Source: Candidatus Jorgensenbacteria bacterium GWA1_54_12
Lineage (GTDB): Bacteria > Patescibacteriota > Minisyncoccia > UBA6257 > GWB1-50-10
Assembly: GCA_001779505.1 (NCBI GenBank)
Contig: MFKH01000010.1
Coordinates: 63,241 to 102,210 of the forward strand
Direction of reading: 5' to 3'
DNA length: 38,970 nucleotides
The notes below the pieces were generated by a model. That model had not been told where the DNA came from. It made no database searches and saw only the letters and a program-made list of their open reading frames with translations. Shown here in pieces: positions 13,011 through 35,749 of the stretch (position 1 is its first letter; every line of letters begins with the position of its first letter). Both the position numbers and the translations under genes were made by a program.

Positions 13011-14153
13011 ATGGGAAATACCGCGCGGCAGCCGCTCGTTTCAATCGTTATCACGCTCTACAATGGAGCCCGTTTTATCTCATGGCCGCTTTTATCGTGC
13101 ATGCATCAGACGTATCGGAATTTAGACATTCTCGTTTTGGACGATGCGAGCACCGACGATACCGAAGCAGTCGTAAAGCAGTATGCGGAGCAGGACAAGC
13201 GTATACGATATGTCCGAAACGAAAAAAACATTGGTTATGCACGGAGTTTGCATAAAGTGGCCTGGCTTGCAATGGGAGAGTATGTTCAACTGCTGGGAGC
13301 AGATGATTGGCTGGAAAGGAACTATATTGAAACGGTTGTTGAGGAATTTGAAAAGCACCCGAAGGCGGCGTGCGTTGCGGCCGAGATTATATCCCTGCGC
13401 ATCATGCCCGAAGGGAACTTCAAGCTTATAGACGGGTATCTCCCAAAAAAGAAAACAATATCAAAAGACACTTTTATTCGAAGTGTGTACCGATCGGACG
13501 TTGGTTCCACACTCACCCCGCTCGCCTTGTTCCGAAAAGAGGATTTCCTTGAAAGCGCTGGTTTTATGAAAGAAATGTTCGAACACCCCCCTCAAAATGT
13601 TCCTCCAGAGCTTCCTGCTTTGCAGCTCAAAGGACATGGAACAGGAGACCTCTTCCTTTTAAAAACAATTCATAAGTATGACTATCTCATACTCACAGAT
13701 AAGACGGCGTTTATGAAAACAGAGCACTTCGAAAACGCGAACAAGCCTCACAATCTCACAATCGACTGGACAAGTGCGGGCAGGATTCTCCGCTCGTACT
13801 ACTACGGGCGGCTTGGTTTTGAATATCTTTTCAGAAACGCATACCGAAACTTTTGGGCTGGTTTTCGCCTGTTTTTTGGAACAGACCCCTTTGTTTCAAT
13901 ATTCGTCACATTTGTAAAGCAAAACTTCAAGTACGATTTCTTCTCCGACCTGAAAAGGGAAGATATGAAAACGTATTTCGCCGATTACTCTCTTTTTGAA
14001 AAGATCGTATCGGCGTTTTTTCTGCCGATTCATTTTATGGCGCGCGCCGCTCACTTTCTTTTTATAAGACCCCTTGACACCTCACGGAGACACGACATAA
14101 ACGTGCGCCAACAGGGCTACTTTCTGGACGAGGCCGGTCGCTTCCAGGCGTAG
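13011..14153 (+). CDS. family 2 glycosyltransferase with extended C-terminal region
   Basis: VSIVITLYNGARFI, LDDASTDDT and GADDWL (DxD-type) motifs typical of GT-A/GT2. Confidence 0.85.
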   Translation: MGNTARQPLVSIVITLYNGARFISWPLLSCMHQTYRNLDILVLDDASTDDTEAVVKQYAEQDKRIRYVRNEKNIGYARSLHKVAWLAMGEYVQLLGADDWLERNYIETVVEEFEKHPKAACVAAEIISLRIMPEGNFKLIDGYLPKKKTISKDTFIRSVYRSDVGSTLTPLALFRKEDFLESAGFMKEMFEHPPQNVPPELPALQLKGHGTGDLFLLKTIHKYDYLILTDKTAFMKTEHFENANKPHNLTIDWTSAGRILRSYYYGRLGFEYLFRNAYRNFWAGFRLFFGTDPFVSIFVTFVKQNFKYDFFSDLKREDMKTYFADYSLFEKIVSAFFLPIHFMARAAHFLFIRPLDTSRRHDINVRQQGYFLDEAGRFQA

Positions 14154-14192: not shown

Positions 14193-15188
14193 ATGAAAAG
14201 AGCTCTCATTACCGGTATAACTGGTCAAGACGGGTCGTACCTTGCCGAACTTCTCCTTGAGAAGGGGTATGAAGTCCGCGGCACAATCCGCCGCTCGAGC
14301 CATTTCAACACCTCCCGCATAGACGATTTGTTTGAAAATGAGCGATTCGGCACATACTATGCCGACCTTATGGACCCAATTTCCATAGGGAACGCAATAT
14401 CGGATTTTGCTCCAGATGAGATTTATAACCTGGGAGCGATGAGTTATGTGAAAGTATCGTTTGACATTCCTGCCTTTACCATCCAAACGAATGCGGTGGG
14501 ACTGCTCAATATTCTGGAATATGTGCGGGGACATGCCCCTCAAACGAAAATATATCAGGCATCAAGTTCAGAAATGTTCGGCGCATCGCGCAGCAAACCA
14601 CCTTTCAACGAGCAATCGGAATTCAGGCCTCAAAGCCCGTATGGAGTCGCAAAACTTGCCGCATTTCATCTTATGCGCAACTATCGCGAGGGGTACGGCC
14701 TTTTTGCCGCGACAGGAATCCTTTTCAATCACGAAAGCCCCCGGCGCGGAGAGGTCTTCGTTACGCGGAAAATTACCCGTGGCGTGGCGGCAATATTGAA
14801 GGGAAAGACCAAGAAACTGGAGTTCGGAAACCTGGACTCCGTGCGCGATTGGGGGCATTCAAAAGATTACGTAAAAGCGATTCATCTCATTCTCCAGCAG
14901 GAAAAACCGGACGAGTACATTGTTGCAACAGGAGAGGCGCACAGCATCAAGGAAGCGCTTGAGTTCTGTTTCAACGAAGTAGGATTGAATTGGAAGGATT
15001 ATGTGGAAACAAACCCGCGATATTTCCGTCCGAACGAGGTGCCGTACCTCCAAGGAGACGCAAGCAGAATCCGCGCCTTGGGATGGAAGCCGGAGTACGG
15101 ATGGAAAGAGACACTGCGGGAGATGCTACAGCACGATATTGAGCACTTTGATGGATTCCCGTCCCGGTTCAGGAAAATAGAGAAATAA
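14193..15188 (+). CDS. gmd: GDP-mannose 4,6-dehydratase
   Basis: MKRALITGITGQDGSYLAELLL, YQASSSEMFG, SPYGVAKL, LFNHESPRRG and GNLDSVRDWGHSKDYV. Start at ATG 14193. Confidence 0.93.
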   Translation: MKRALITGITGQDGSYLAELLLEKGYEVRGTIRRSSHFNTSRIDDLFENERFGTYYADLMDPISIGNAISDFAPDEIYNLGAMSYVKVSFDIPAFTIQTNAVGLLNILEYVRGHAPQTKIYQASSSEMFGASRSKPPFNEQSEFRPQSPYGVAKLAAFHLMRNYREGYGLFAATGILFNHESPRRGEVFVTRKITRGVAAILKGKTKKLEFGNLDSVRDWGHSKDYVKAIHLILQQEKPDEYIVATGEAHSIKEALEFCFNEVGLNWKDYVETNPRYFRPNEVPYLQGDASRIRALGWKPEYGWKETLREMLQHDIEHFDGFPSRFRKIEK

Positions 15189-15977
15189 ATGGAAAAAGGA
15201 GACCGCGGATCGGCTCTCAAGAAAATACGGGTGGAAGTGCTCAACATGGTGCGTGCCGCAGGGGAAGGGCACGTACCGAGCGCATTTTCTGTTATAGAAA
15301 TCTTATATGCATTGTATTCTCGCATGGGCGAGCGCGACAGGTTTTTCTTGAGTAAGGGGCATGCAAGTACGGCGCTCTACGCAACACTGGCGCACTTTGG
15401 TGCTTTGAATGAGCGCGAACTTCAAACATATGGGAAATATAATTCCGCGCTCGGCGGGCATCCTCATCGGAACGAGAAGAAAGGAATCATGAATTCTTCC
15501 GGTTCGCTGGGACACGGATTTCCTGTGGCCGCCGGCTATGCGCTCTCGCTCCGTTTGAAGCGGGGCGGCGGGCGCGTTTTTTGCCTCGTGGGGGACGGGG
15601 AATGCAATGAGGGGACGATATGGGAAACAGCACTCCTCGCGTCGCACCTGAAGCTTCGTGAATTGGTGTGCGTTGTGGATAATAACGGCTCACAGACAAG
15701 AGCTGTGCCTTCGGGAGACCTTGCGGAGAAATTCAGGAGTTTTGGATGGAACGCGGTGGAAGTTAAAAACGGACACCGAGTGAACGATTTAGAAAACGCG
15801 ATATTCGCAGAACGCGGCGATGACGAGAGGCCGTATTGCGTCGTTGCGCATACAAAAAAAGGAAAGGGAGTCCGAGAGATGGAGGAAAACCATTTTGCTT
15901 GGCATCACCGGGCACCCACTCCGGAAGAATACGAACGGTTCGTCAAGGAGATTATGGGGAGCCCCGAAGAAGCATGA
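15189..15977 (+). CDS. transketolase, N-terminal (ThDP-binding) subunit
   Basis: GHVPSAFSVIEILYALY, GSLGHGFPVAAG and LVGDGECNEGTIWE. The ATG directly abuts the gmd stop. Confidence 0.9.
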   Translation: MEKGDRGSALKKIRVEVLNMVRAAGEGHVPSAFSVIEILYALYSRMGERDRFFLSKGHASTALYATLAHFGALNERELQTYGKYNSALGGHPHRNEKKGIMNSSGSLGHGFPVAAGYALSLRLKRGGGRVFCLVGDGECNEGTIWETALLASHLKLRELVCVVDNNGSQTRAVPSGDLAEKFRSFGWNAVEVKNGHRVNDLENAIFAERGDDERPYCVVAHTKKGKGVREMEENHFAWHHRAPTPEEYERFVKEIMGSPEEA

Positions 15978-16888
15978 GAAAGCAATTTGCAAAGACCCTT
16001 CTTGAGACCGGCGCGGACGAGCGCGTTGCGGTGCTTTTGGGAGACCTTGGCCATTTCCTCTTGCGTGATTTTGAAGCGCGCTACCCTTCGCGGTTTTTCA
16101 ATATGGGCATTGCGGAACAATCTATGATGAGCATGGCGGCAGGACTCGCCTTGGGAGGATTTTTCCCCGTTGTGCACAGCATTACGCCATTCATCACCGA
16201 ACGGTGTTTTGAGCAGATAAAAGACGATTTGTGTTACCAGAACACCGGTGTGAATATTGTGAGCGTCGGGAGTGCATTTGACTATGCCGCACTCGGGTGC
16301 ACTCACCATTCATATGACGATATAGGCATATTGCGCACTCTTCCGCGGATGCAAATCGTGTACCCTGCCGCACCTCATGAATTTGACATCCTTTTTAAGG
16401 AGGCGTATGCGAATGGCGCGCCGACTTATTTCCGTCTGCCGGAACATATCCACTCGCTTTCCACCCACCCGAAGTTCGGCGAGGTGGAACAGATGCGTGA
16501 AGGGAACGTTGTGACCGTGATTGCCGCAGGTCCGCAGCTCCAAAACGCGTGGGAAGCGGCTGAAGAAGCTGCGCGCGCAGGCGTGTTGTGCGACTTGTGG
16601 TACGTGACGACCATAAAACCCCTAAGCGCCGCATCGGAAAAGGCGATTGCGGCGAGCGTCGCAAAAACAGGGAAGGTGGTGACTGTTGAGGAACATTCTG
16701 TTATTGGCGGTATCGGAGACCTTATTGCCCTCATATGCGGAGGAGAACGGTTCACACATGTCCGCCTCGGCGTCAACGATAAATTCTTGGAGTGTTACGG
16801 AACATACGAGGAACATTGTAAGGCAAACGGTCTCACAAAAGAAAACATATTAAAAGCAATCCATGACAGCGCGGGAAGAAATCGTTAA
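15974..16888 (+). CDS. transketolase, C-terminal (pyrimidine-binding) subunit
   Basis: FFNMGIAEQSMMSMAAGLALGG and GCTHHSYDDIGILRTLP. ATGA overlap with the N-terminal subunit gene. The ORF-track start 15836 is rejected as an out-of-context extension. Confidence 0.9.
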   Translation: MRKQFAKTLLETGADERVAVLLGDLGHFLLRDFEARYPSRFFNMGIAEQSMMSMAAGLALGGFFPVVHSITPFITERCFEQIKDDLCYQNTGVNIVSVGSAFDYAALGCTHHSYDDIGILRTLPRMQIVYPAAPHEFDILFKEAYANGAPTYFRLPEHIHSLSTHPKFGEVEQMREGNVVTVIAAGPQLQNAWEAAEEAARAGVLCDLWYVTTIKPLSAASEKAIAASVAKTGKVVTVEEHSVIGGIGDLIALICGGERFTHVRLGVNDKFLECYGTYEEHCKANGLTKENILKAIHDSAGRNR

Positions 16889-17921
16889 CGAGGACGCAGA
16901 GCGCGCAGTAATGCGGCTCGACGCAAGCCCCTTGCGCGGCGCGCGCGTACTTCTCGCGGGAGCGAACGGTCTTCTTGGATCCTCTTTCGCGCATTTTTTT
17001 AACCACCTGAACCGCTCGCAGGGATTTGGTATTTCGTGCGACTGCGTAACAAAGAACGAGCTTTCACCAGAGTCGCGCATATACGACCTGCGTGAAGCGT
17101 CCGGCTTCCGAATAATACAGGCAAACCTTGCAACAGACACCCCTTATGATGGTGCATATGATTTTGTTATATACGCTGCCGGTTATTCCGCCCCGCTCCG
17201 CTTTCTTCGTGACCCTCTTGAGGTTGTGGAAGTGAATTACGACGGCATGAAACGCTTGCTTCGCCACGTGCGTGAGAAGAGCCAGCGGGCAAAGGTTTTG
17301 TATTTCAGCAGCAGTGAGATTTACGGCAGTCCGCCGCCCGAGAGCATTCCGACGCCAGAAACATACCCGGGTAACTCGCCAGTCACAAACCCACGCGCCT
17401 GTTACGTGGAATCAAAGCGGCTTACCGAAGTTATGTGCCTTATCTATCGCAGTCAGGGCATAGACGTGAAAATTGTGCGGCCGGCTCTAACCTACGGGCC
17501 GGGGCTGGGACTTCAGGACGAAAGAGTATTGAGCCAGTTCGTTAGGAAAGCCCACCTTGATAAGAAGATAGATATGCTGGACGACGGGCGCGACCTGCGT
17601 GCATACTGTTATGGGGAGGACATGCTTGTAGAACTACTTCTCATTCTTCTCAAAGGGAAGGAAGTGATTTACAACGCCGGTTCCGACAGGGAAGAGGTAA
17701 GCATTAAGGACCTTGCGCTCACAATAGGGAGCATTATGGGAGTTCCGGTCAATGTCGGGGCGCCGCGGCAAGGAGCGGTGGGAGCGCCGGGGCGAGTGCT
17801 TCTTGATATATCTAAAGTAAGAAACGAATTCGGCTTCGCTCCAAAAGTAACACTTGAAGAAGGACTTCGGAGAACCATTCAGTGGGCGACATCAAATTCA
17901 GAGAATCAAAATAATGAATAA
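16863..17921 (+). CDS. extended SDR, UDP-glucuronate-decarboxylase/ArnA-C-like NAD-dependent epimerase/dehydratase
   Basis: Rossmann motif VLLAGANGLLGS, then SSSEIYG and PRACYVESKRLTE (YxxxK). The start could instead be ATG 16911. Confidence 0.85.
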   Translation: MTAREEIVNEDAERAVMRLDASPLRGARVLLAGANGLLGSSFAHFFNHLNRSQGFGISCDCVTKNELSPESRIYDLREASGFRIIQANLATDTPYDGAYDFVIYAAGYSAPLRFLRDPLEVVEVNYDGMKRLLRHVREKSQRAKVLYFSSSEIYGSPPPESIPTPETYPGNSPVTNPRACYVESKRLTEVMCLIYRSQGIDVKIVRPALTYGPGLGLQDERVLSQFVRKAHLDKKIDMLDDGRDLRAYCYGEDMLVELLLILLKGKEVIYNAGSDREEVSIKDLALTIGSIMGVPVNVGAPRQGAVGAPGRVLLDISKVRNEFGFAPKVTLEEGLRRTIQWATSNSENQNNE

Positions 17922-18339
17922 AACAGAGAAATCGAAAATTACCTTCTTTAAAGCAGACATCTCAACGCATGAGGATAATCGCCGCCGGATTTTTGGCATT
18001 GTTTTACCTGCCGAGATTAATTTTGCGGCAAGGGGAGTGAAAACGATAAATTTTTCAAGAAGCGGGGTAGTGGTCGGGAATCACTACCACACCATTGAAT
18101 CGGGGCGAATTGAGGTTTACATCGGAATCGGCGCTCCGGGAGTGGAACTTTTCAACTTTGCGTATCGTGACGGCGGGGAAATAAAAGAAAGGATTATTTT
18201 CAATGGAGACAGCTGTTTTATCCCGCCCGGCTGCACACATTCCTTTAAGGTGCTTTCCGAGAACGCATCGTTGTGGGGATTTTCAAATCTTGAAGGATAC
18301 GACCCGGCGCACGACGAGAAAGACGTCATATTAACTTAG
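17914..18339 (+). CDS. small cupin-fold protein, sugar-nucleotide epimerase/isomerase-like (RmlC/WxcM-like)
   Basis: 141 aa with GNHYH and FIPPGCTHSF cupin motifs. Paralogous to 26262..26657. Start ATG 17914 overlaps the upstream stop by 8 nt. Confidence 0.65.
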   Translation: MNKTEKSKITFFKADISTHEDNRRRIFGIVLPAEINFAARGVKTINFSRSGVVVGNHYHTIESGRIEVYIGIGAPGVELFNFAYRDGGEIKERIIFNGDSCFIPPGCTHSFKVLSENASLWGFSNLEGYDPAHDEKDVILT

Positions 18340-18419: not shown

Positions 18420-19376
18420 ATGACAAAAACAAAACATATCACGCCAGCCGACTTTGAAGCTGTATGGGGCGGACCCTTGAGCGATTATGTAAAGGGGAAA
18501 ATAGAGAAATACGACCTGCGCTACGAGGAATGCACCCGAGAGGAGCGTGACAAGTGGCTTCGCTTCATCTGCGAGGTCCTTTTACATCCGCGCGAACTCA
18601 TAAAAGCGGGGTCTCACCGAGAGCAGGAGTGGGAAAAAGGATGGAGTGAAAACGCAAAGGCGTTTGCCGCGTCCCGAAATATCTCGGATATCTATCCGCA
18701 CTACTTCGGGAAATATCCGGTAGGGCGGTGGCGCGGCGATTTGGTGAAGCCGGTAAGCGCGGACTATGAACGCCTCATGTTTGCCGTCATCCAGGACTGG
18801 CTTTTTGACATGTACCTGAAAGACACGAATGCCATTTATGAATTCGGGTGCGGTACGGGGCATAACCTGCTCCGCGCACGCGCGGCGAACCCTCGCGCAG
18901 CGCTCATGGGGTTTGATTGGGCAGAGTCGTCAGGAGACACCATTCGTAGCATGCGGGAAGCGGGAATTTTGGATAACGTTTTTTTCTCGCGGTTCGATTT
19001 CTTTAATCCCGATGCTACTGTTGCGTTTTCTCCCAATACAGGCGTCTACACGGCTGCGGCGCTTGAGCAAATCGGCAACAAATTTGAACCATTCCTCCAA
19101 TTTCTTCTCAAGAAGAAACCGAAAGTATGCGTGCACATAGAACCTATTGCCGAGCTTTTGGACGAAACGAAGCTCTTAGATTACCTTTCCTTGGAGTACT
19201 TCAAGGCGCGGAATTATCTCTTCGGTTTCCTCACGCGCCTGCGGGAACTTGAAAAGGAAGGATACATAACAATTCACCGCGCACAGTGCACACACATTGG
19301 CAGCTTGTTTATAGAAGGATATTCGGTTGTCGTATGGTCTCCGCGTTCGCTTGAAGAGCCGAGAAAAAGCGATTAG
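18420..19376 (+). CDS. class I SAM-dependent methyltransferase with unknown N-terminal domain
   Basis: Motif I IYEFGCGTGHNLL in the middle of a 318-aa protein. I do not recognise the roughly 140-aa N-terminal region. Confidence 0.7.
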   Translation: MTKTKHITPADFEAVWGGPLSDYVKGKIEKYDLRYEECTREERDKWLRFICEVLLHPRELIKAGSHREQEWEKGWSENAKAFAASRNISDIYPHYFGKYPVGRWRGDLVKPVSADYERLMFAVIQDWLFDMYLKDTNAIYEFGCGTGHNLLRARAANPRAALMGFDWAESSGDTIRSMREAGILDNVFFSRFDFFNPDATVAFSPNTGVYTAAALEQIGNKFEPFLQFLLKKKPKVCVHIEPIAELLDETKLLDYLSLEYFKARNYLFGFLTRLRELEKEGYITIHRAQCTHIGSLFIEGYSVVVWSPRSLEEPRKSD

Positions 19377-19387
19377 AGTAGGAAAAC

Positions 19388-20185
19388 ATGTCAAAAACAG
19401 CAATCGGCATTATTGGTGTCGGCTACGTTGGCGGCGCGCTTCACGGGTGGTTTAAAAGTCAGCCGGAGCGCTTTGACGTTTTTGTATACGACAAATTCAA
19501 GCGTCTTGGCTCTCCAGATGAAGTGAATCGTGCCAGCATCATTTTTGTTGCGACACCAACCCCTTTCCGCGAAGACGCAGGGGGGTATGACGATTCTGCA
19601 ATCCGCGACGCGCTTGCAAATATCCGCGACGGAAAGATGATAGTCATCAAGTCATCGGTCACCCCGGGCTCAACCGAACGGTTCCAAAAGGAGCATCCGC
19701 AGAAGATTCTCCTCTTCAGTCCGGAGTTCCTCAAGGCGCAGAACGCCGCGAGTGATTTCGTGAACTCCGAGCGCCAGATTGTAGGATATGCGGATGAGAA
19801 ACACAGGGGAAAAGCTGCGGAGATACTCGCCATCCTGCCTCCAGCTCCCTACATGAAAGTGATGCGCGCAACCGAAGCGGAGATGGTGAAATTTTTCGGC
19901 AACACATACCTTGCGACGCGCGTGGTGTTTGCCAATCAAATCTACGACCTCTGCGAGAAACTGGGTATTGATTACAACGCGGTGAAAGAAGGAGTCGGGC
20001 AGGACCCGCGCATCGGCACGAGCCACCTGGAAGTTCTGCATGGTGAGCACCGAGGCTATGGCGGCCTGTGTTTCCCAAAAGACATGAAGGCGTTTATCCA
20101 ATTCGCCGAAGCGCTTGGAGTAGACCTCGCTCTTCACAAAAGAGCGGATGAGGTGAACGAGAAACTGAAAAAAATACGGATATAA
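19388..20185 (+). CDS. nucleotide-sugar (UDP-glucose/GDP-mannose) dehydrogenase family protein lacking the C-terminal domain
   Basis: IGIIGVGYVGGAL (NAD fold), FVATPTP, SPEFLKAQNA, and catalytic Cys context GYGGLCFPKDMKAF. The protein ends about 40 aa later at 265 aa. Confidence 0.8.
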   Translation: MSKTAIGIIGVGYVGGALHGWFKSQPERFDVFVYDKFKRLGSPDEVNRASIIFVATPTPFREDAGGYDDSAIRDALANIRDGKMIVIKSSVTPGSTERFQKEHPQKILLFSPEFLKAQNAASDFVNSERQIVGYADEKHRGKAAEILAILPPAPYMKVMRATEAEMVKFFGNTYLATRVVFANQIYDLCEKLGIDYNAVKEGVGQDPRIGTSHLEVLHGEHRGYGGLCFPKDMKAFIQFAEALGVDLALHKRADEVNEKLKKIRI

Positions 20186-20204: not shown

Positions 20205-20948
20205 ATGCCATACATGAAGTACATGTCGAACGTGAGGGAAATTGTGAAACGCATTTTGAGCTGGGGTAGCCCAGAAAAGTATGTCCGGAAACTGCATGAG
20301 AGTAAGAAATATTTGGAGGCATACAGCGAACATACCGATTCACGCATCACGACTGAACCTCACAATGCAATCGGTGGGTCGTGGGAAGAAATGGGAAAAC
20401 TCCAGTTTGATTTTCTAGTGAAGAGAGGTCTCAGGCCGCACCATACGCTGCTTGACGTGGGGTGTGGCACCTTGCGGGGTGGGAGACATTTCATTAAGTA
20501 CTTGAACGCTGGGAATTATACAGGCTTTGATATTTCCCCGAAGGCGATAGAATACGGCAGGAAACTTGTGGAAGAAGAAAGGCTTACGGACAAGATACCG
20601 GTGCTTTTCGTGAGTGAGGAGAAAAATCTGAAATTTGAAGAACTCCGAGGAAAAACGTTTGATTTTCTTCTCGCTCAATCGGTTTTAACGCACCTTCCCC
20701 CAGAGTCGATTGAAGAACTTTTTGAGAATATCGGTAAAGTCATGAAGGAGAAATCCTCCTTTTACTTCACGTATTTTGATGGGGAACGGTACAAACATTT
20801 TTCCATAGAAGATTTCCGCTATCCATTCTCTCACCTTGAGTCGCTAGCGAAGGAGCACGGGTTTTCCGTAAAGGATTACTCAAACGAATATCCGCACCCG
20901 ATAGGGCAGAAAATGATTGAAGTAGTCCGCCATGGCGCAGGTCTCTAA
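20205..20948 (+). CDS. class I SAM-dependent methyltransferase
   Basis: LLDVGCGTLRGGRHF (motif I), DISPKAIEYG and FDFLLAQSVLTHLP. Confidence 0.8.
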   Translation: MPYMKYMSNVREIVKRILSWGSPEKYVRKLHESKKYLEAYSEHTDSRITTEPHNAIGGSWEEMGKLQFDFLVKRGLRPHHTLLDVGCGTLRGGRHFIKYLNAGNYTGFDISPKAIEYGRKLVEEERLTDKIPVLFVSEEKNLKFEELRGKTFDFLLAQSVLTHLPPESIEELFENIGKVMKEKSSFYFTYFDGERYKHFSIEDFRYPFSHLESLAKEHGFSVKDYSNEYPHPIGQKMIEVVRHGAGL

Positions 20949-21909
20949 AAAAGTTGCCGCGGAGCTGTATCAGAAGGCATACCTCATCCGCAGCGCGGAG
21001 CGGAAAATATGCGACAACTATCCGAAAGACGTCATGCAGTCGCCGATGCACATGTCTATGGGGGAGGAGGGGATAGTCGCAGGCGTGTGCCAGGCGCTCA
21101 AAAAGAAGGACCAAGTGTTCGGCACGTATCGGAGCCACGGTCTGTACCTAGCGAAGACCGGCGAAACGGATGACTTTTTTGCCGAGATGTATGGAAAAGT
21201 TTCCGGCATTGCGAACGGCAAGGCGGGGTCTATGTTTTTATCGCGGCCCGCGGCGGGACTCATAAGCGTCTCGGCCGTTGTAACAACAGCCATCCCAGTC
21301 GCTGTTGGAGCGGCGTACGCGAACAAACTGAAGAGAAACGGGAAAATAACTGCGGTCTTCTTTGGCGATGGAGCATTGGAGGAGGGAGCGTTTTGGGAAA
21401 GTTTGAATTTTGCCTGTTTGAAACAGGTGCCGATACTTTTTGTTTGCGAAGACAATGGGTTTGCCATTCAAACTCCTCTGCGCGCCCGGCGGGGTTACGC
21501 GTCAATTATCGACATCGTGAGCAGGTTTAAGAGCAATGTATTTCAAGGAGAAACAACCAACCCTGAAGTTATCTACGGTACCGCGCTGAAAGCAATTGCG
21601 GCAGTGAAGAAAACGCGCAAGCCAGCCTTTCTGCGCTTCAAGTATTACCGGTATTTGGAACACGTGGGCGTCCGCGACGATTTTGCCGTTGGCTACCGTC
21701 CCCGGAACGAATTCAAGAAATGGGAGAAAATTGATCCGGTCAAAGTTATGCGGAAGAATCTTTTGAGAAAGGGCATGACAGAGAAGACGGTGGTGGGGAT
21801 GGAGAAAGCGATAGAAAAGAAAGTGGAACGGAGCGTTGCGCGCGCCGAAAAGGCTCCGTTCCCGCCGAGGTCAGATTTGTATAAAGACATTTTCTATGAA
21901 AAGAAATGA
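20932..21909 (+). CDS. ThDP-dependent dehydrogenase E1 component, alpha subunit (PDH/acetoin-DH type)
   Basis: MHMSMGEEGIVAGV, YRSHG and FFGDGALEEGAFWESLNFACLKQVPILFVCEDNGFAIQTP (ThDP motif). Confidence 0.88.
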   Translation: MAQVSKKVAAELYQKAYLIRSAERKICDNYPKDVMQSPMHMSMGEEGIVAGVCQALKKKDQVFGTYRSHGLYLAKTGETDDFFAEMYGKVSGIANGKAGSMFLSRPAAGLISVSAVVTTAIPVAVGAAYANKLKRNGKITAVFFGDGALEEGAFWESLNFACLKQVPILFVCEDNGFAIQTPLRARRGYASIIDIVSRFKSNVFQGETTNPEVIYGTALKAIAAVKKTRKPAFLRFKYYRYLEHVGVRDDFAVGYRPRNEFKKWEKIDPVKVMRKNLLRKGMTEKTVVGMEKAIEKKVERSVARAEKAPFPPRSDLYKDIFYEKK

Positions 21910-22948
21910 ACGTTTCATAAGTTATAAGGACGCTCTGCGGGAGGCGCTCTTGCAGGAAATGGAACGGGATCGCCGGGTTTTTGTTTACGGTCTCGGTGTG
22001 CCAGATAACAATGCCGTCTTTGGCACGACAAGGGGATTGAAAGAGCGGTTCGGGCCGGAACGGGTTTTTGACACGCCGCTCTCCGAAGACGCAATGACGG
22101 GAATCGGGTTGGGCGCAGCCATTAATGGTCTGAAGCCCGTTCACCACCACATCAGAGTTGATTTCCTGCTTTTGGCCTTCAATCAGCTGGCGAACATGGT
22201 TTCCATTTTGCGGTACGGTTCTGGGGGAAAGGTAACGATTCCCTTCGTCATACGGGCAATTATTGGCAGAGGATGGGGACAAGGTCTCCAACATTCAAAA
22301 TCAATGCAGTCGGTATTCGCGCACATTCCCGGGCTCAAGGTGATCATGCCTTCAACGCCGCACGATGCAAAGGGGCTTCTTACTGCCGCTATACGGGATG
22401 AAAATCCGGTCATATGTTTGGAGCACCGGTGGCTATATGACCAGGAAGGAAATGTTCCTTTGAAACAATTTACCGTTCCCTTAGGGAAGAGCAAGGTTCT
22501 GCGGAGAGGAAATGATGTAACTGTTGTTGCAACTTCCTGGATGAATATTGAAGCGAGGCACGCCTCTGAAATCTTAAAGAAAAGGGGCGTGAGCGTTGAA
22601 ATTGTAGATCCGCGAACCATACAGCCGTTGGATGAAGCCACCATCATTCGTTCGGTAAAAAAGACCAGCCACTGCATTGTCGCAGATAATGACTGGCTGA
22701 ACTGCGGCTTCAGCGCAGAAGTGGCGGCAAGGGTTTCGCGGGAATGCTTTGGCGAACTCAAATCGCCGGTTGAGCGGATCGGTTTTGCGCCGACGCCGTG
22801 CCCCATGACGCGGGTTCTAGAAGACGAGTTTTACCCGAACGCAGGAGATATTGTGAGAGCCATTGAAAAAGCGCTGAAATTGAAGCCAATGGACCTCTCA
22901 AAAGAACGATTCTACAGCCACGAGAACAGATTCAAGGGTCCTTTCTAA
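21896..22948 (+). CDS. ThDP-dependent dehydrogenase E1 component, beta subunit
   Basis: ISYKDALREALLQEMERDRRVFVYG and FDTPLSEDAMTGIGLGAAINGLKP, followed by a transketolase-C-like tail. Start ATG 21896 overlaps the alpha-subunit stop by 14 nt. Confidence 0.88.
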   Translation: MKRNERFISYKDALREALLQEMERDRRVFVYGLGVPDNNAVFGTTRGLKERFGPERVFDTPLSEDAMTGIGLGAAINGLKPVHHHIRVDFLLLAFNQLANMVSILRYGSGGKVTIPFVIRAIIGRGWGQGLQHSKSMQSVFAHIPGLKVIMPSTPHDAKGLLTAAIRDENPVICLEHRWLYDQEGNVPLKQFTVPLGKSKVLRRGNDVTVVATSWMNIEARHASEILKKRGVSVEIVDPRTIQPLDEATIIRSVKKTSHCIVADNDWLNCGFSAEVAARVSRECFGELKSPVERIGFAPTPCPMTRVLEDEFYPNAGDIVRAIEKALKLKPMDLSKERFYSHENRFKGPF

Positions 22949-28456: not shown

Positions 28457-30658
28457 ATGAAATACGACCTTTGTATTATCGGAGGAGCCGGGCACGTAGG
28501 ACTCCCCCTGGGAGTGGCCTTTGCAAATAGCGGTGTGAGAACGGCGATTTTCGACGTTAACCAGGAGGCTCTTGAAAAAATTAGGTCCGGCCAGTTTCCG
28601 TTCAAAGAGAGAGGCGGAAATGAAGCGCTCCAGACAGCCTTGAGAGCAAATACTCTTTTTGTCACCGACTCCCCGGAATCAATAAGCGATTCCAAATTTA
28701 TAATTATTGTCGTTGGCACGCCGATTGATGAATATCTGAGTCCGAATCATAGTCTTACCACGAAACTGCTGGATAAGTACTTTGATTATTTTAGGGATGG
28801 GCAAATTGTAATCCTACGGAGTACGGTTTACCCCGGCACAACTGAAAAAGTTCAAAATTATTTTCAGAAGAGGGGTAAACAAGTGAAACTAGCCATGTGT
28901 CCCGAAAGAATCTCTCAAGGGTACGCCTTGGAAGAATTTAAAGTTTTACCTCAAATTATTTCGGTCATTGACGACTCCGCTTTTGAAGAAGTTTCTTCCT
29001 TGTTCAAAAAAATCGCCTCCGCAGAAATTATCCGTATCAAACCAATTGAAGCGGAACTTGCGAAACTTTTTACCAATGCATGGCGTTACATAAAGTTCGC
29101 CGTCGGAACGCAGTTTTTTACCATAGCCCATGACCATGGTTTGGATTATCACCAAATCGAGAAAGCTATGAAGAAAGATTATGCCCGAAACAACGATTTA
29201 CCTGCCCCCGGTTTTACCGCCGGACCCTGTCTCTTAAAAGATACTATGCAGCTTGCGGCTTTCACCAACAACAATTTTTTATTGGGACACGCGGCTATGC
29301 TCGTGAATGAAGGCCTTGTCAACCATATAATCCAGGGCCTGAAGCGTGAATATCCCGAATTTCTCAAAGACAAAACACTCGGCATTTTGGGGATGGCCTT
29401 CAAGGCCGATAACGATGACCACCGCGACTCGCTTTCATACAAACTTCGCAAAATCGGACGAGTTGAGTGTAAAAACGTGCTTTGCACAGATGTTTACATT
29501 AAGGATCCTAGCTTCGTGCCACTTGAAACGGTACTTAAAGAATCCGACATTTTGGTTTTGGCGACGCCGCACGCGAAGTATGCAAGTATAGACCCTCGCA
29601 AATATCCAGATAAGAAATTCATTGATATATGGAATTTCTGGGGTGCCCAGAAAACAAAAAGGATACTTATCACGGGGGCAGCCGGTTTCATTGGCTATCA
29701 CCTTGCATTGCATCTTCTTGAGAAATACGGCAACGAGTGCGAGCTTGTGCTCGTGGACAATCTTCAAAAGGAGGGCATGGACGAGGAGCTCAAAAAACTC
29801 ATCGGGAATCCTCAAATTTCATTCAAGAACCTTGATCTCACCGACCCCCACGCGTACGGAGAGATTGGAGAGAATTATGACTATGTCTATCACCTTGCCG
29901 CGATTAATCACACTCAACTCTTTTATGAAATACCGCATAAGATATTGCGGACAAACACGCTTTCTCTCATACACATGCTGGATTGGTTCAAGGAAAAGAG
30001 CAACAAGGGAAAATTCTGTTTTACCTCATCAAACGAGGCGTACGCGGGCGCTTTGAACGCGTTCGGAACACTGCCTCTGCCGACACCGGAGGATGTGCCA
30101 CTCGTCATAGAAGATCCTAAAAATCCGCGCTGGTCGTACGCCGCAACGAAACTCGTCGGCGAACTTTTCGTCAATCATTACGCGAAAATGTATAATTTCA
30201 GGGCACTCATCGTCCGTCCGCACAATTTCTACGGTCCGCGGGCGGGGCATGGGGGACATGTCATACCCGACTTCGCAGAACGTATCGCAAGGCAGATTGA
30301 CCCATTCCCCATCTATGGAGCGGATGATACACGAACATTCTGCTATATTTCTGATGCAGTACGGGCGATGTCGGCGCTCATGGACTCTCCTCAAACCGAC
30401 AAACAACCGATTGAAACGGTACATATCGGTGACTTCGAGGAAATCACCATGCAGGAACTTGCTCACAAGATGTTTGAGACAGCCAATTGGAGACCGCAGT
30501 CGCTTGATATTAAAAACTCTCCCTCCGGAAGCGTAAAGAGGCGTTTAGCCAATATAACGAAGCTTCAGGGCCTGACTGGCTGGAGGCCGGAAGTATCCCT
30601 TATGGAAGGATTGAAAAGAACATATGACTGGTACCTCAAGCACCCCCGCGGTGCATAG
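28457..30658 (+). CDS. fusion protein: nucleotide-sugar dehydrogenase (all three domains) + extended SDR epimerase/dehydratase/decarboxylase
   Basis: N-terminal half: CIIGGAGHVGLPLG, VGTPID, catalytic Cys GFTAGPCLLKD, and C-domain GMAFKADNDDHRDS. C-terminal half from about aa 400: ILITGAAGFIGYHL and YAATKLVGE. Confidence 0.88.
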   Translation: MKYDLCIIGGAGHVGLPLGVAFANSGVRTAIFDVNQEALEKIRSGQFPFKERGGNEALQTALRANTLFVTDSPESISDSKFIIIVVGTPIDEYLSPNHSLTTKLLDKYFDYFRDGQIVILRSTVYPGTTEKVQNYFQKRGKQVKLAMCPERISQGYALEEFKVLPQIISVIDDSAFEEVSSLFKKIASAEIIRIKPIEAELAKLFTNAWRYIKFAVGTQFFTIAHDHGLDYHQIEKAMKKDYARNNDLPAPGFTAGPCLLKDTMQLAAFTNNNFLLGHAAMLVNEGLVNHIIQGLKREYPEFLKDKTLGILGMAFKADNDDHRDSLSYKLRKIGRVECKNVLCTDVYIKDPSFVPLETVLKESDILVLATPHAKYASIDPRKYPDKKFIDIWNFWGAQKTKRILITGAAGFIGYHLALHLLEKYGNECELVLVDNLQKEGMDEELKKLIGNPQISFKNLDLTDPHAYGEIGENYDYVYHLAAINHTQLFYEIPHKILRTNTLSLIHMLDWFKEKSNKGKFCFTSSNEAYAGALNAFGTLPLPTPEDVPLVIEDPKNPRWSYAATKLVGELFVNHYAKMYNFRALIVRPHNFYGPRAGHGGHVIPDFAERIARQIDPFPIYGADDTRTFCYISDAVRAMSALMDSPQTDKQPIETVHIGDFEEITMQELAHKMFETANWRPQSLDIKNSPSGSVKRRLANITKLQGLTGWRPEVSLMEGLKRTYDWYLKHPRGA

Positions 30659-32930: not shown

Positions 32931-33521
32931 ATGACAAAAATGAGGGCAATCTATCACAAAATAAGGAGAACAATACTTTCGTGGTTTACTCTGCCGAGGT
33001 ATGCCTACATCGAAAAAGTAAAAGTGCCGATGAAAAATTGGATGATGCACCAGTTCACTTTTGGCGGAGCAAAACTGAAACTTGTGTACGAAGAAGAACT
33101 TGTTGAGGAGGCTAAGAAGTTTGTGCGGCCGGGTATGCTCTTTTTTGATATTGGAGCAGGAATCGGGGACTGGAGCTACATATTCGCGTCTTTGGGGTGT
33201 GAGGTATACGCATATGAATCCGATGAGAACTTGCAGAAGTTTATAAAAAAAATTGTGGGAAGGGATAATCTGCCAATTAAGGTGTTCGGAGAATTCAAGA
33301 AATTCGAAGGTGTCATGCCCGGCTTTGCGAAGATAGACGTTGACGGTGGAGAGGGGAATATCATCATGAACAGTCTTGATGCCCTCAAAGAAAGCGACGT
33401 CACTCTCGCCTTGGAAGTCAGGAATGAGACGTTTTACCTCATAGACGAGCTGAAAAAAATCGGCTACAGGGAAGTTAAAAGATTCGGGGACGACAATCGT
33501 GTGATTTTTCTTAAGAAATGA
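32931..33521 (+). CDS. FkbM-family methyltransferase
   Basis: FFDIGAGIGDWSYIFASLG and AKIDVDGGEGNII motifs. Confidence 0.75.
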   Translation: MTKMRAIYHKIRRTILSWFTLPRYAYIEKVKVPMKNWMMHQFTFGGAKLKLVYEEELVEEAKKFVRPGMLFFDIGAGIGDWSYIFASLGCEVYAYESDENLQKFIKKIVGRDNLPIKVFGEFKKFEGVMPGFAKIDVDGGEGNIIMNSLDALKESDVTLALEVRNETFYLIDELKKIGYREVKRFGDDNRVIFLKK

Positions 33522-34566: not shown

Positions 34567-35749
34567 CAAGAAGTACAAACTGGCGATACTCATATCGCAT
34601 CCGATTCAATACCACACGCCGCTTTTTCAGGCGCTGGCAAGACATCCCGAGATAGACCTCACCGTTTATTACTGTTGGGATTTTGGCGTGAAAAAACAAT
34701 CGGCTGAACCTGAATTCGGCGTTGCATACGAGTGGGACATTCCGCTCCTTGAAGGGTATAAGTACAAGTTTCTAAAAAATTTAAGCCTTCGACCATCAGA
34801 AAAATTTTGGGGGCAGGTGAACCCGGACGTTATGAGGGAAATATGGAAAGAGCGATATGACGCCTTGTGGGTTCACGGATATTCGTTTTTCACCGATTGG
34901 CTCGCATTTCTCGCGGCGAAATTAAGAGGAACGCCGATTTTCATTCGCGGCATAACGCATCTTTTGGATAAGAAACCATGGCACATCCGCCTTATAAAGC
35001 GGCTTATGCTTTCGGTGCTATTCAAAGCATGCGCCGCATGCCTCTACATAGGAAAGCATAATAAAGATTATTACCAGCACTATGGCGTTCCCGAACGGAA
35101 GCTGTTTCTTGTGCCGCATGTCGTCGGAAACGACTTTTTCAGAAAGTTTTATGAGGAGCTGAAACCGCGCCGCGCCGAGATTCGAAAGGAATTCGGTTTT
35201 ACGGGCGACGACCCGGTCATCCTCTTCGCCGGAAAATTAATTCCCAAAAAGCGCCCCTTGTGGGTTCTTGAAGCATACCGGAAAGTCCGAGAGCAATATC
35301 CATGCAAAATGCTCTTCGCCGGAGAGGGACCGCTAAGAAAAGACATTGAGTCAGAGGTGAAAAAACATGGCATCCCCGACGTAGTCATTACGGGTTTTTT
35401 GAACCAGACGGAGATGCCGCGAGCGTATGTTTCCGGAGACATGCTTGTGCTCCCGTCGGCATACGGTGAAACGTGGGGACTTGTCGTAAATGAGGCAATG
35501 AATTTTGTTCTGCCTATAATCGTTTCAGATAAAGTAGGATGCGGACCCGATATGGTTAAGGAAGGGGAGAACGGATATATCATACGCTCTCCTGAAAAAC
35601 TGGCCGATGCGCTGCGCGAAATTGTTTCCGACGGTGAAAAGCGGCGCGAGTTTGGGAAGCGGTCGGCAGAACTGGTATCCATATGGAACGTGGAACAGGC
35701 CGTTCGGGGAGCATACGCCGCCTTACGGTCAATTTATGAATCCGTTTAG
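34556..35749 (+). CDS. family 4 (GT-B) glycosyltransferase
   Basis: LPSAYGETWGLVVNEAMNFVLPIIVSD (EX7E region) and FAGKLIPKKRP. Overlaps the upstream stop by 11 nt. Confidence 0.85.
   Translation: MTDSKKYKLAILISHPIQYHTPLFQALARHPEIDLTVYYCWDFGVKKQSAEPEFGVAYEWDIPLLEGYKYKFLKNLSLRPSEKFWGQVNPDVMREIWKERYDALWVHGYSFFTDWLAFLAAKLRGTPIFIRGITHLLDKKPWHIRLIKRLMLSVLFKACAACLYIGKHNKDYYQHYGVPERKLFLVPHVVGNDFFRKFYEELKPRRAEIRKEFGFTGDDPVILFAGKLIPKKRPLWVLEAYRKVREQYPCKMLFAGEGPLRKDIESEVKKHGIPDVVITGFLNQTEMPRAYVSGDMLVLPSAYGETWGLVVNEAMNFVLPIIVSDKVGCGPDMVKEGENGYIIRSPEKLADALREIVSDGEKRREFGKRSAELVSIWNVEQAVRGAYAALRSIYESV

Follow-up and report, generated by a model that had tools for sequence, protein, structure and literature searches.

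The window analyzed here, a stretch of 38,970 nucleotides from contig MFKH01000010.1 of Candidatus Jorgensenbacteria bacterium GWA1_54_12, contains a 27-kb polysaccharide locus (approximately 10.8 to 38.4 kb) in which five consecutive forward-strand genes place a nucleotide-sugar dehydratase beside a two-gene transketolase (TK)-like enzyme. These are gmd (14193..15188; ATG at 14193, TAA stop; 331 aa); tktN (15189..15977; ATG at 15189; 262 aa), for the N-terminal, ThDP diphosphate-binding subunit of a non-canonical split TK-like enzyme; tktC (15974..16888; ATG at 15974; 304 aa), for the C-terminal subunit, with pyrimidine-binding and C domains and a remodeled substrate pocket; a gene for an extended SDR with a UXS-like catalytic half (16863..17921; ATG at 16863; 352 aa); and a small cupin gene (17914..18339; ATG at 17914; 141 aa). 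Read directly, the junctions abut or overlap exactly as the original prediction claimed: the gmd TAA is followed by the tktN ATG with a gap of 0 nt, tktN and tktC share an ATGA overlap, tktC overlaps the SDR gene by 26 nt, and the SDR gene overlaps the cupin gene by 8 nt. Nevertheless, translational coupling, which that prediction used to tie gmd to the TK genes, is a weak argument, because nearly all of the approximately 27 same-strand genes of the locus are equally packed. Packing of this kind cannot single out a gmd-TK link; the link stands out because its synteny is conserved in other loci.

Sequence comparison assigns the 14193..15188 product as a GDP-mannose 4,6-dehydratase (Gmd). It matches Pfam GDP_Man_Dehyd at 388 bits and TIGR01472 at 407.5 bits (cut-off, 415), and its top-scoring PDB structures are true GMDs (MUR1, 356 bits; E. 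coli, 323 bits), whereas the GDP-heptose 4,6-dehydratase 7US5 yields only 150 bits. The gene upstream of gmd codes for a GT2 glycosyltransferase (13011..14153, forward strand; 380 aa; Pfam Glycos_transf_2, E = 9e-27). Because GT2 homologs travel with gmd and the TK genes in the closest relatives, lying between gmd and tktN in locus L005 (53% identical) and immediately upstream of gmd in locus L175 (51% identical), this protein is a candidate transferase for the pathway product.

The TK-like pair has the expected Pfam architecture, with Transketolase_N (113 bits) in the tktN product followed by Transket_pyr and Transketolase_C in the tktC product, and the best PDB match of TktC is the split TK of Carboxydothermus hydrogenoformans, 6YAJ. 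The pair resembles that canonical split enzyme (PDB 6YAK/6YAJ) and E. coli TktA in fold, domain order, ThDP-binding motif, cofactor-activating Glu, and catalytic histidines. In E. coli numbering, TktN keeps equivalents of H26, H66, H100, G114, L116, D155, E160, D183, N185, and H261, with the substitutions I187 to S and H258 to F, while TktC keeps R358, E411, and H473. The ThDP-binding and catalytic set (GDG...N, Glu411, His26, His66, His100, His261, and His473) is therefore retained. TktC, however, carries the substitutions S385 to F, F434 to I, H461 to G, I464 to F, L466 to Y, D469 to L, and R520 to E. In sugar-phosphate substrates, the phosphate and the C2-OH are bound by His461, Arg520, Ser385, and Asp469, whose places are taken here by Gly, Glu, Phe, and Leu; all four original residues are retained in the canonical split TKs (approximately 40) recovered in the same scans. 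The altered active-site signature is common to approximately 100 relatives. Moreover, in a neighbor-joining tree, a split separates all canonical sequences from 90 of 100 G461-type TktC sequences, including every sequence from the type 1 loci defined below, so that the pair does not cluster with pentose-phosphate enzymes. These comparisons set the pair apart as a distinct non-canonical lineage, with its predicted catalytic machinery intact and its sugar-phosphate-binding residues gone; judged by sequence, it is not a pentose-phosphate enzyme.

Gene neighborhoods connect this lineage to keto-sugar metabolism. We defined type 1 loci as those with a non-canonical TK pair followed by the gene for this SDR, counted only loci whose context spans 8 kb or more, and scored gmd as present at an identity of at least 45% within 10 kb. 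The TK-plus-SDR subtype is specifically linked to gmd, which is present in 18 of 26 type 1 loci, in none of 36 loci of other non-canonical TKs (type 2), and in none of 40 canonical split TK loci (Fisher p ~1e-9). Dereplication leaves gmd in 17 of 24 type 1 clusters at 90% TktC identity and in 11 of 18 at 70%. Seven marine loci carry tktN, tktC, SDR, methyltransferase, small open reading frame (ORF), and gmd as a single run, and in L175 the GT2 gene, gmd (78% identical), a small ORF, and, directly after these, the SDR gene (57%) adjoin the TK pair. In uncultured bacteria, a split, remodeled TK-like enzyme thus recurs beside gmd at loci for cell-surface sugars; all close relatives are metagenome derived. 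Several of these loci also place genes of GT10, the fucosyltransferase family, beside the module. The original proposal that the pair is tied to the Gmd product, not to central metabolism, gains support from the remodeled acceptor and phosphate residues together with this co-occurrence. Eight of the 26 type 1 loci nevertheless have no gmd within reach, so that the acceptor may not always be a Gmd product; alternatively, gmd may lie elsewhere in those genomes.

More broadly, the non-canonical TK lineage is embedded in NDP-4-keto-6-deoxyhexose pathways. The type 2 TKs sit beside other 4,6-dehydratases, of CDP or dTDP type, in 16 of 36 loci; for instance, a Paenibacillus plasmid has a bona fide CDP-glucose 4,6-dehydratase (459 bits) and rfbF adjoining an SDR::TktN fusion. 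Type 2 TKs also neighbor genes resembling TylC3-type C-methyltransferases, a family known from the C-methylation of NDP-4-keto-sugars. Canonical split TKs occurred in sugar-nucleotide loci in 0 of 40 cases.

The SDR gene adjoins tktC in 40 related loci and, in type 1 loci, is always the first gene 3' of tktC. The SDR of the window matches the Epimerase family (116 bits), carries the motifs SSSEIYG and YVESK, and has human UXS1 as its best solved relative (E = 1e-27, over residues 99 to 351 only). The gene after the cupin encodes a SAM-dependent methyltransferase-like protein (18420..19376, forward strand; 318 aa) with a weak Methyltransf_31 match and the motif I sequence YEFGCGTGHN. Homologs occur in 16 of the 26 type 1 loci, and the equivalent post-SDR gene of L088 (312 aa) carries Methyltransf_21; the TK-plus-SDR module has the methyltransferase as its conserved fourth member. 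The truncated UDP-glucose/GDP-mannose-dehydrogenase (UGDH)-like protein that follows (19388..20185, forward strand; 265 aa) has UDPG_MGDP_dh_N and the central domain only; it lacks the C-terminal nucleotide-sugar domain and has the catalytic Cys motif GGLCFPKD. Homologs with two domains (322 to 323 aa) adjoin gmd in L102 and L105, and L007 has another upstream of tktN, so this protein may be associated with the module as well.

The small cupin of the window gives no significant Pfam match of its own, FdtA included, but among 39 family members Cupin_2 is found in 11, dTDP_sugar_isom in 8, and FdtA in 3. Its AF2 model (pLDDT, 94.7) retrieves the ketoisomerases FdtD, FdtA, QdtA, and WlaRA as top Foldseek matches (probability, 1.0; TM, 0.64 to 0.70), followed by ChmJ and RmlC-type epimerases, bearing out the cupin label at the level of family and fold. 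Homologs are present in L005 and, adjoining gmd, in L088. The motif GNHYH contains the invariant H57, and FdtA, QdtA, and WlaRA share with the cupin a size of approximately 135 to 140 aa, the fold, the HxH pair on the corresponding strand, and a 4,6-dehydratase neighbor. Identity to them is only 15 to 19%, however, and they are dTDP-4-keto-6-deoxyglucose 3,4-ketoisomerases, whereas the partner dehydratase of the cupin is GDP specific; we know of no characterized GDP-sugar 3,4-ketoisomerase. The model thus looks most like an NDP-4-keto-6-deoxy-sugar 3,4-ketoisomerase of the FdtA/QdtA kind, with an RmlC/ChmJ-like epimerase as the other option. The earlier casting of the cupin as a finishing epimerase fits this less well, since a ketoisomerase would act ahead of the C-C bond-forming step.

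Branching of NDP-keto-sugars is known from two other ThDP families, the YerE-like and the E1 alpha/beta-type enzymes (PMC12247030). YerE of the yersiniose A pathway and the YerE-like ErwE, JanthE, and MMAR_2332 exemplify an O-antigen pathway in which an NDP-4-keto-6-deoxyhexose receives an acyl anion equivalent at its C4 ketone, after which the reductase YerF acts on the side-chain ketone. The genetic logic of 4,6-dehydratase, ThDP enzyme, and reductase is the same in the window. YerE, however, is a single-chain enzyme of the decarboxylase (acetolactate synthase-like) family with different domains, and it uses CDP-3,6-dideoxy-4-keto-glucose and pyruvate, whereas the window has a two-subunit TK-fold protein and a GDP-linked sugar. 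The alpha-KADH2 enzymes (aldgarose pathway; kibdelomycin KbDH-alpha/beta), which transfer a C2 unit from pyruvate onto C3 or C4 of an NDP-keto-sugar, resemble the window pair in being heteromeric and in belonging, as ThDP enzymes, to the TK/E1 fold superfamily. Known examples belong to actinomycete antibiotic clusters and dTDP sugars, and the window pair differs in matching Transketolase_N and Transket_pyr better than E1 models.

Our literature search turned up no description of a TK at work in a GDP-sugar pathway, in agreement with the original prediction. The idea of branching by a TK nevertheless has precedent: split-gene TKs have been proposed to attach a hydroxyacetyl branch to a keto-sugar on the biosynthetic routes to miharamycin and amipurimycin, which are Streptomyces nucleoside antibiotics (PMC12247030). 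The 13 split-TK sequences from Streptomyces BGCs of Krug et al. 2024 are cited here as summarized in PMC12247030. All of these assignments are proposals, none of the enzymes having been characterized in vitro, and acceptance of a ketone has been shown for no TK (PMC12247030). Likened by description only, those enzymes share with the window pair adjacent genes for the N- and C-terminal parts, clustering with a keto-sugar-making enzyme, and a proposed C2 ketol transfer to a ketone that gives a tertiary alcohol. They belong to actinomycete clusters and a nucleoside-type sugar, whereas the window pair comes from an uncultured groundwater bacterium, lies in a locus for cell-surface polysaccharide, is linked to gmd and hence a GDP-sugar, and has a fixed SDR and methyltransferase partner.

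The best explanation, to which we give even odds, is that the five genes and the methyltransferase gene together make an unusual 6-deoxyhexose that is GDP linked and has a new C-C bond. Gmd would convert GDP-mannose to GDP-4-keto-6-deoxy-D-mannose, as its family assignment predicts, and the cupin, judging from its fold, may shift the keto group to C3 or epimerize the sugar. The split TK-like enzyme would then generate a C2 carbanion on ThDP, from hydroxypyruvate or a ketose (hydroxyacetyl unit) or from pyruvate (acetyl unit). As YerE and the sugar-branching enzymes of E1 type suggest by analogy, this unit would be added to the ring ketone of the Gmd-derived GDP-keto-6-deoxyhexose, giving a tertiary alcohol with a two-carbon keto side chain. 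The SDR is the proposed reductase of this branched product and would act, like YerF, on the ketone of the newly added side chain; the methyltransferase would methylate the sugar, and the GT2 or a GT10-type transferase would place it in a surface glycan. Such C2 branching of a GDP-keto-sugar would be a reaction never shown for the TK family. To our knowledge, no bacterial glycan contains a matching GDP-derived C2-branched 6-deoxyhexose.

Because it resembles UXS-type enzymes that oxidize C4, the SDR might make a keto-sugar instead of reducing one. The TK-like enzyme would then act on the product of its own SDR, such as an NDP-4-keto-pentose from an NDP-uronic acid or a C4-oxidized NDP-hexose, while Gmd supplied a separate 6-deoxy sugar to the same glycan. 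We regard this as unlikely, though credible: the best solved relative of the SDR is a UDP-glucuronate decarboxylase, its SSSE motif is of UXS type and not the TDE of dehydratases, UGDH-type genes are present in the window, the pair is kept with its SDR in the eight loci without visible gmd, and the miharamycin proposal likewise joins a ketone-making oxidoreductase to a split TK. Yet the UXS similarity is confined to part of the protein and stays below every curated cut-off, just 3 of 26 type 1 loci have UGDH-like genes whereas 18 have gmd, and gmd shares a gene run with the module in many loci. Its absence from all 76 comparison loci indicates that gmd is not generic glycan-locus background. 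Against the branching pathway, gmd and the SDR might by themselves make up an ordinary 6-deoxyhexose route, in which case the SDR and not the TK would drive the co-occurrence.

It is improbable that the pair performs other ThDP chemistry only loosely tied to a nucleotide sugar, either making or cleaving a small ketol or acyloin as a non-sugar substituent or cleaving a sugar C-C bond. The TK family does include members that have taken on unrelated chemistry, such as DXS and AniP, the latter coupling an arylpyruvate with glyceraldehyde (PMC11387542), and many methyltransferases and oxidoreductases without an assigned role surround the module. This lineage, however, lies consistently beside NDP-hexose 4,6-dehydratases of three nucleotide types and also with families that tailor 4-keto-sugars (C-methyltransferase, ketoisomerase, and aminotransferase), associations that indicate the keto-sugar itself as the substrate. 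Least credible by far is an ordinary TK, whether a housekeeping pentose-phosphate enzyme or a source of sedoheptulose-7-phosphate for heptose, placed here by coincidence: the best Pfam and NCBIfam matches are TK models and GDP-heptose genes (SIS, GHMP kinase, and nucleotidyltransferase) lie close by in the relatives L087 and L096, but the pair scores 203 (TktN against NF004559) and 121 bits, far below the curated cut-off of 488, three of four phosphate-binding residues and Asp469 are gone though kept in all 40-odd canonical split TKs sampled, the lineage is separate in the tree, none of the 40 canonical split TK loci is a sugar-nucleotide locus, and heptose-pathway genes were not found in the window.

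Beyond the five genes first described, the locus holds, besides the conserved methyltransferase partner, an E1 alpha/beta ThDP system 3 kb downstream of the module. The alpha-like subunit (20932..21909, forward strand; 325 aa) matches E1_dh at 158 bits and TIGR03182 at 233 bits (cut-off, 394), and its beta-like partner (21896..22948, forward strand; 350 aa), with Transket_pyr and Transketolase_C, matches NF006667 at 312 bits (cut-off, 321). No E2 or E3 genes are found in the window. The two subunits, being alpha-KADH2-like, are a second candidate keto-sugar branching enzyme, and E1 alpha/beta pairs lie beside non-canonical TKs and 4,6-dehydratases in 12 of the 36 type 2 loci.

Five genes on the forward strand lie end to end in the window: gmd (14193-15188), tktN (15189-15977), tktC (15974-16888), an SDR gene (16863-17921), and a cupin open reading frame of 141 codons (17914-18339). 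The claim that these genes are packed without gaps was borne out when all junctions were read directly. The TAA stop of gmd is followed at once by the tktN ATG at 15189, tktN and tktC share an ATGA overlap, tktC (ATG at 15974) overlaps the SDR gene (ATG at 16863) by 26 nt, and the SDR gene overlaps the cupin frame (ATG at 17914) by 8 nt. Packing alone is no argument for the gmd-transketolase link that had been drawn from it, because the five genes are no tighter than the remaining locus, a ~27-kb run in which ~27 polysaccharide genes on the same strand are separated by very short gaps or overlap. The contents of this run include a Wzy_C ligase-like gene, GT2 and GT4 glycosyltransferases, at least five methyltransferases, SDRs, and UGDH-type genes. 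The DNA derives from a Rifle groundwater metagenome (PRJNA268031), and its nearest relatives are mostly from Patescibacteria.

Family scans support the gene identities of gmd, tktN, tktC, and the SDR gene, with the cupin as the exception. Gmd scores 407.5 bits on TIGR01472, slightly below the cut-off of 415, and its next family scores 114 bits. Against the PDB, true GMDs score 285 to 356 bits and a GDP-heptose dehydratase scores 150 bits, which rules out an assignment as a GDP-heptose 4,6-dehydratase. As judged from these similarities, the window gene encodes a true Gmd.

The transketolase-like enzyme has the Transketolase_N, Transket_pyr, and Transketolase_C domains spread over two chains, and its closest solved structure is the split transketolase of C. 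hydrogenoformans. TktN and TktC were aligned with E. coli TktA, whose residue numbering is used here, and with all split transketolases from two collection scans. TktN retains His26, His66, His100, the GDG motif (Asp155), Asn185, and His261, and TktC retains Arg358, the cofactor-activating Glu411, and His473, a set that includes the entire ThDP-binding GDG...N motif, Glu411, and the histidines at 26, 100, 261, and 473 of canonical transketolase (EC 2.2.1.1). In transketolases, Arg358, Ser385, His461, and Arg520 serve in sugar-phosphate binding, and Asp469 contacts the C2 hydroxyl of the acceptor. Of these residues, only Arg358 survives in TktC, where Ser385 is replaced by Phe, His461 by Gly, Asp469 by Leu, and Arg520 by Glu; further substitutions are Phe434 to Ile, Ile464 to Phe, and Leu466 to Tyr. 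The changed signature, E-I-F-G-F/Y-Y-x-L-H, is common to ~100 sequences, and the E. coli residues at the replaced positions persist in the 43 canonical sequences aligned alongside. Comparison of these positions with DXS revealed no likeness. On NF004559, the curated NCBIfam equivalog for transketolase, TktN scores 203.5 bits and TktC 120.6 bits, relative to a cut-off of 488. The pair falls outside canonical transketolase, as the phosphate and acceptor residues, a defining feature, are missing apart from Arg358. Since His26 and His261 hold the C1 hydroxyl of the dihydroxyethyl intermediate in transketolases, their retention would be compatible with, but not diagnostic of, hydroxypyruvate or a ketose as the donor.

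The original prediction had called for a phylogeny of the pair against pentose-phosphate transketolases, and the pair falls in a separate lineage, as evidenced by a neighbor-joining TktC tree read as an unrooted split. This split is a rough result because the tree carries no bootstrap support: 90 of 100 Gly461 sequences, including every one followed by the SDR gene, lie on one side, and all canonical TktC sequences lie on the opposite side along with 10 intermediate Gly461 sequences. When the tree was rooted on E. coli TktA, the Gly461 group was not monophyletic. The lineage has more than 100 members, found in Patescibacteria, in bacteria of marine and sediment origin, and in a few cultured representatives of Bacillota, Desulfovibrionales, and Bradyrhizobium. 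Related non-canonical transketolases are carried in culture by Paenibacillus cellulosilyticus KACC 14175, Solidesulfovibrio carbinolicus DSM 3852 (pDCAR1), Desulfocucumis palustris NAW-5, and Bradyrhizobium guangxiense CCBAU 53363. No cultured carrier was found for the arrangement seen in the window, in which the SDR gene immediately follows the non-canonical pair (type 1); the close homologs listed for TktN, the SDR, and the cupin are all from MAGs or metagenomes, and a scan of the genome collection, in which the window's species is not represented, gave a best identity of 47%.

A search of plasmids returned chiefly catabolic split transketolases with an RSEAFS... signature beside sugar transporters and kinases, plus two non-canonical examples. 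This third TktC signature, R-S-E-A-F-S-x-Y-x-L-H-R, has Ser at 461 and Leu at 469 and retains Ser385 and Arg520. Its carriers, a Rhizobium sp. SL42 plasmid locus (L174, 9132-10921) and two other loci (L173 and L023), have ABC transporters for sugars and an FGGY kinase as neighbors of the split transketolase, which is presumably a catabolic enzyme of altered specificity.

Gene neighborhoods link the non-canonical lineage to nucleotide-sugar chemistry. Five loci with close TktN homologs share a core consisting of tktN (~253 aa), tktC (~300 aa), the SDR gene (~350 aa), and a gene for a putative methyltransferase (~315 aa) that is the counterpart of the window gene at 18420-19376; in one locus (L088), the gene at that position matches Methyltransf_21. 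For a wider scan, metagenome contigs were searched with the TktC alignment, open reading frames were labeled by BLAST against annotated reference proteins, and, at loci for which 8 kb or more of context was available, gmd was counted if its product was at least 45% identical to reference Gmds and encoded within 10 kb. By this definition, gmd is present at 18/26 type 1 loci, at 0/36 loci with other non-canonical transketolases, and at 0/40 loci with canonical split transketolases (Fisher p ~1e-9). When type 1 loci are clustered by TktC identity to remove redundancy, 17 of 24 clusters at 90% and 11 of 18 at 70% have gmd. The corresponding counts for any NDP-hexose 4,6-dehydratase are 19/26, 16/36, and 0/40, such that one lies near 35 of the 62 non-canonical pairs versus none of the 40 canonical pairs. 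In seven marine loci, the genes form a single run in the order tktN-tktC-SDR-methyltransferase-small ORF-gmd. A further locus, found via its SDR (L175), contains a GT2 gene, gmd (78% identical), a small ORF, the SDR gene (57%), and then a transketolase pair of a different subtype. GT10 genes, members of a fucosyltransferase family that uses GDP-fucose, adjoin the module in several loci. The non-canonical lineage overall is tied to the formation of NDP-4-keto-6-deoxyhexoses, and the window subtype is tied to the GDP branch. It could be that gmd tracks the SDR and not the transketolase; because the two are never apart in type 1 loci, gmd, the transketolase, and the SDR are linked either way.

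The other non-canonical transketolases keep company with RmlB-like or CDP-glucose 4,6-dehydratases, TylC3-type C-methyltransferases, and FabG-like reductases. On a plasmid of Paenibacillus cellulosilyticus, the gene order is rfbF, rfbG, methyltransferase, SDR::TktN fusion, TktC, TylF-type methyltransferase, and glycosyltransferase, and the protein encoded by rfbG matches a CDP-glucose 4,6-dehydratase model at 459 bits. The fusion, annotated as a 635-aa "SDR family oxidoreductase" (L171, NZ_CP054609, 10097-12927), joins an SDR to the transketolase N subunit; it directly follows rfbF, rfbG, and the large methyltransferase gene and precedes the non-canonical TktC. This plasmid locus provides a cultured, sequenced candidate for a CDP-linked version of the pathway. 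In several type 1 loci (L095, L096, and L136), a DegT/DnrJ-type aminotransferase gene comes after the transketolase and SDR genes, which suggests that some versions of the pathway may aminate a product ketone, as occurs on the kibdelomycin branch. Additionally, one polysaccharide locus bearing a non-canonical transketolase (L087, 5400-6551) contains two very short ThDP-enzyme-like genes, encoding 195 aa (E1_dh/TPP_enzyme_C) and 181 aa (a weak Transket_pyr match), and another such locus (L099) has homologs of 204 and 173 aa; judging by these domain matches, the short pair could be a minimal two-subunit ThDP enzyme.

The roles proposed earlier for the SDR and cupin, as reductase and epimerase, fared differently. 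The best solved relative of the SDR is human UXS1 (E = 1e-27, over residues 99 to 351 only), and in the protein, SSSEIYG and YVESK correspond to the T/S-E and YxxxK catalytic motifs and GANGLLG marks a dinucleotide fold; it passes no curated family cut-off among the NCBIfam models. Few type 1 loci (3/26) have a UGDH-like gene near the module, and a UDP-glucuronate decarboxylase role therefore gains no support; nor does a route in which a UXS-like SDR would turn UDP-glucuronate into a 4-keto-pentose as the transketolase acceptor. We favor, by analogy, a YerF-like reductase acting on the new side-chain ketone, because non-canonical transketolases constantly pair with a reductase-type SDR, to the point of fusion in Paenibacillus. 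The locus was also assembled from another sample of the same organism (L003, 9932-11282); there, the SDR is predicted at 384 aa with 90% identity and the cupin frame is shortened to 67 aa, owing either to variation between strains or to a frameshift where the two genes meet.

By itself, the window cupin has no significant Pfam or NCBIfam match. Its family is small, comprising ~45 representative clusters, and family members have Pfam matches to Cupin_2 (11/39), dTDP_sugar_isom (8/39), and FdtA (PF05523; 3/39), the window protein not being among the PF05523 matches. Family and fold bear out the cupin label. An AlphaFold (AF2) model built from 39 sequences reached a pLDDT of 94.7. The best 15 Foldseek matches to this model in the PDB are all 3,4-ketoisomerases (probability 1.0, TM 0.64 to 0.70), including FdtD, FdtA, QdtA, WlaRA, and HCAN_0198; ChmJ and RmlC-type epimerases come next and are nearly as close. 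The catalytic histidines of FdtA are His49 and His51, and sequences of the cupin family conserve an HxH pair (H57 and H59 in GNHYH). In its predicted structure, the cupin is thus most like an enzyme that shifts a keto group from C4 to C3, and the epimerase role is left with nearly equal structural similarity. A homolog of the cupin gene occurs in L088, where it adjoins gmd. The cupin appears confined to that locus and the window's close relatives, because the small ORFs (~143 aa) between the methyltransferase gene and gmd in marine loci were not cupin homologs by Jackhmmer and had no Pfam match.

Taken with the remodeled pocket, these neighborhoods strengthen the original prediction substantially and support it in part: the association between the pair and Gmd stands, and we infer the chemical steps beyond Gmd. 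The boldest reading, which is somewhat less likely than not, is that a widespread transketolase-derived ThDP lineage adds hydroxyacetyl or acetyl branches to NDP-4-keto-6-deoxyhexoses, with the window subtype working on a GDP-sugar together with a GDP-sugar 3,4-ketoisomerase. In our preferred reading, which we hold tentatively, Gmd would provide GDP-4-keto-6-deoxymannose, the cupin in this lineage might isomerize it to the 3-keto form or epimerize it, and the transketolase-like enzyme would add a ThDP-bound C2 carbanion to the ring ketone. The SDR would then reduce the side-chain ketone, and the methyltransferase would methylate the sugar before its transfer by a GT2 or GT10-type enzyme.

An unlikely, though not negligible, alternative is that the SDR itself makes the keto acceptor and gmd feeds a different sugar; the UXS-like motifs and the lack of gmd at 8/26 type 1 loci fit this idea, and it is weakened by how seldom UGDH occurs and how specific the link with gmd is. 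Some other ThDP chemistry on a non-nucleotide substrate is a little more doubtful, given that 4,6-dehydratases and 4-keto-sugar tailoring enzymes are constantly alongside. That the pair is an ordinary pentose-phosphate or housekeeping transketolase, or one that supplies S7P, is scarcely credible, as the active-site residues, scores against curated cut-offs, tree position, and gene context all contradict it.

Branching of keto-sugars by ThDP enzymes, as the preferred reading would have it, has precedents. A 2025 review distinguishes three classes: YerE-like enzymes of the decarboxylase family, which act on CDP-sugars for LPS; E1 alpha/beta-type "alpha-KADH2" enzymes, which act on dTDP-sugars for antibiotics with pyruvate as the donor; and split-gene transketolases, which are proposed only, for miharamycin, amipurimycin, and 13 further sequences (PMC12247030). 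All 13 are described as Streptomycete, and none is characterized (PMC12247030). The window system shares the genetic logic of YerE and YerF, but its pair lacks the single-chain TPP_enzyme_N/TPP_enzyme_M/TPP_enzyme_C architecture of YerE-like enzymes. It appears to work like the split-transketolase class, a likeness drawn from the published description of the Streptomyces enzymes: in the miharamycin and amipurimycin type, adjacent N and C genes cluster with an enzyme that makes a keto-sugar, and the window has the same arrangement directly after gmd. Unlike the Streptomyces enzymes, however, it belongs to surface-glycan loci of uncultured bacteria, is associated with a GDP-sugar, has an SDR and a methyltransferase as constant partners, and carries a defined active-site signature. 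An Actinoplanes exopolysaccharide cluster (wps-2) with methyltransferase, TK-N, TK-C, and aminotransferase genes has also been described, without explanation (PMC13390465). The earlier statement that no characterized GDP-sugar pathway with a transketolase is known held up, as our literature search found none, nor any paper that places a transketolase in one pathway with gmd or GDP-4-keto-6-deoxymannose.

No transketolase has been shown to carry out carboligation in vitro with a ketone as the acceptor, and the review names the absence of a characterized ketone-accepting transketolase as a gap, the filling of which would open a new class of functionalized tertiary alcohols (PMC12247030). The lineage described here adds a large and diverse pool of candidate enzymes with a recognizable active-site signature, and the test substrate for the window subtype is concrete and easily made from GDP-mannose plus Gmd. 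With signature-defined candidates and an accessible substrate, the question is directly testable. If true, the proposed pathway would be the first known to C-branch a GDP-sugar, its cupin would be the first 3,4-ketoisomerase for GDP-sugars, and its transketolase would be the first shown to accept a ketone. More widely, glycans on the surface of candidate-phyla-radiation and marine bacteria may contain branched GDP-derived sugars that are as yet undescribed.

Other genes in the window locus hint at further sugar modifications. E1 alpha-like and E1 beta-like genes (20932-22948, forward strand) lie 3 kb downstream, unaccompanied in the window by an E2 or E3 gene, and such pairs recur beside the other non-canonical transketolases and RmlB-like 4,6-dehydratases at 12/36 loci (e.g., L104). 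This setting fits the alpha-KADH2 type, which adds acetyl branches to NDP-keto-sugars, and the locus may yield either two distinct branched sugars or a single sugar with two branches. A forward-strand gene at 19388-20185 encodes a protein resembling UDP-glucose/GDP-mannose dehydrogenases that lacks the entire C-terminal nucleotide-sugar-binding domain and retains its Rossmann motif and GGLCFPKD, the motif with the catalytic Cys. A pseudogene is improbable, because two-domain homologs (312 to 323 aa) adjoin gmd or tktN elsewhere (L102, 12879-13850; L105, 13162-14130; and the ORF upstream of tktN in L007). Farther along the same strand, a gene at 28457-30658 encodes a 733-aa fusion of a complete nucleotide-sugar dehydrogenase (TIGR03026, 248 bits) and an extended SDR of the dehydratase/epimerase family. 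Finally, at least five methyltransferase-type genes (18420-19376, 20205-20948, 32931-33521, 35607-36509, and 37675-38418), one of them FkbM-type, point to a surface polysaccharide that is probably heavily methylated.
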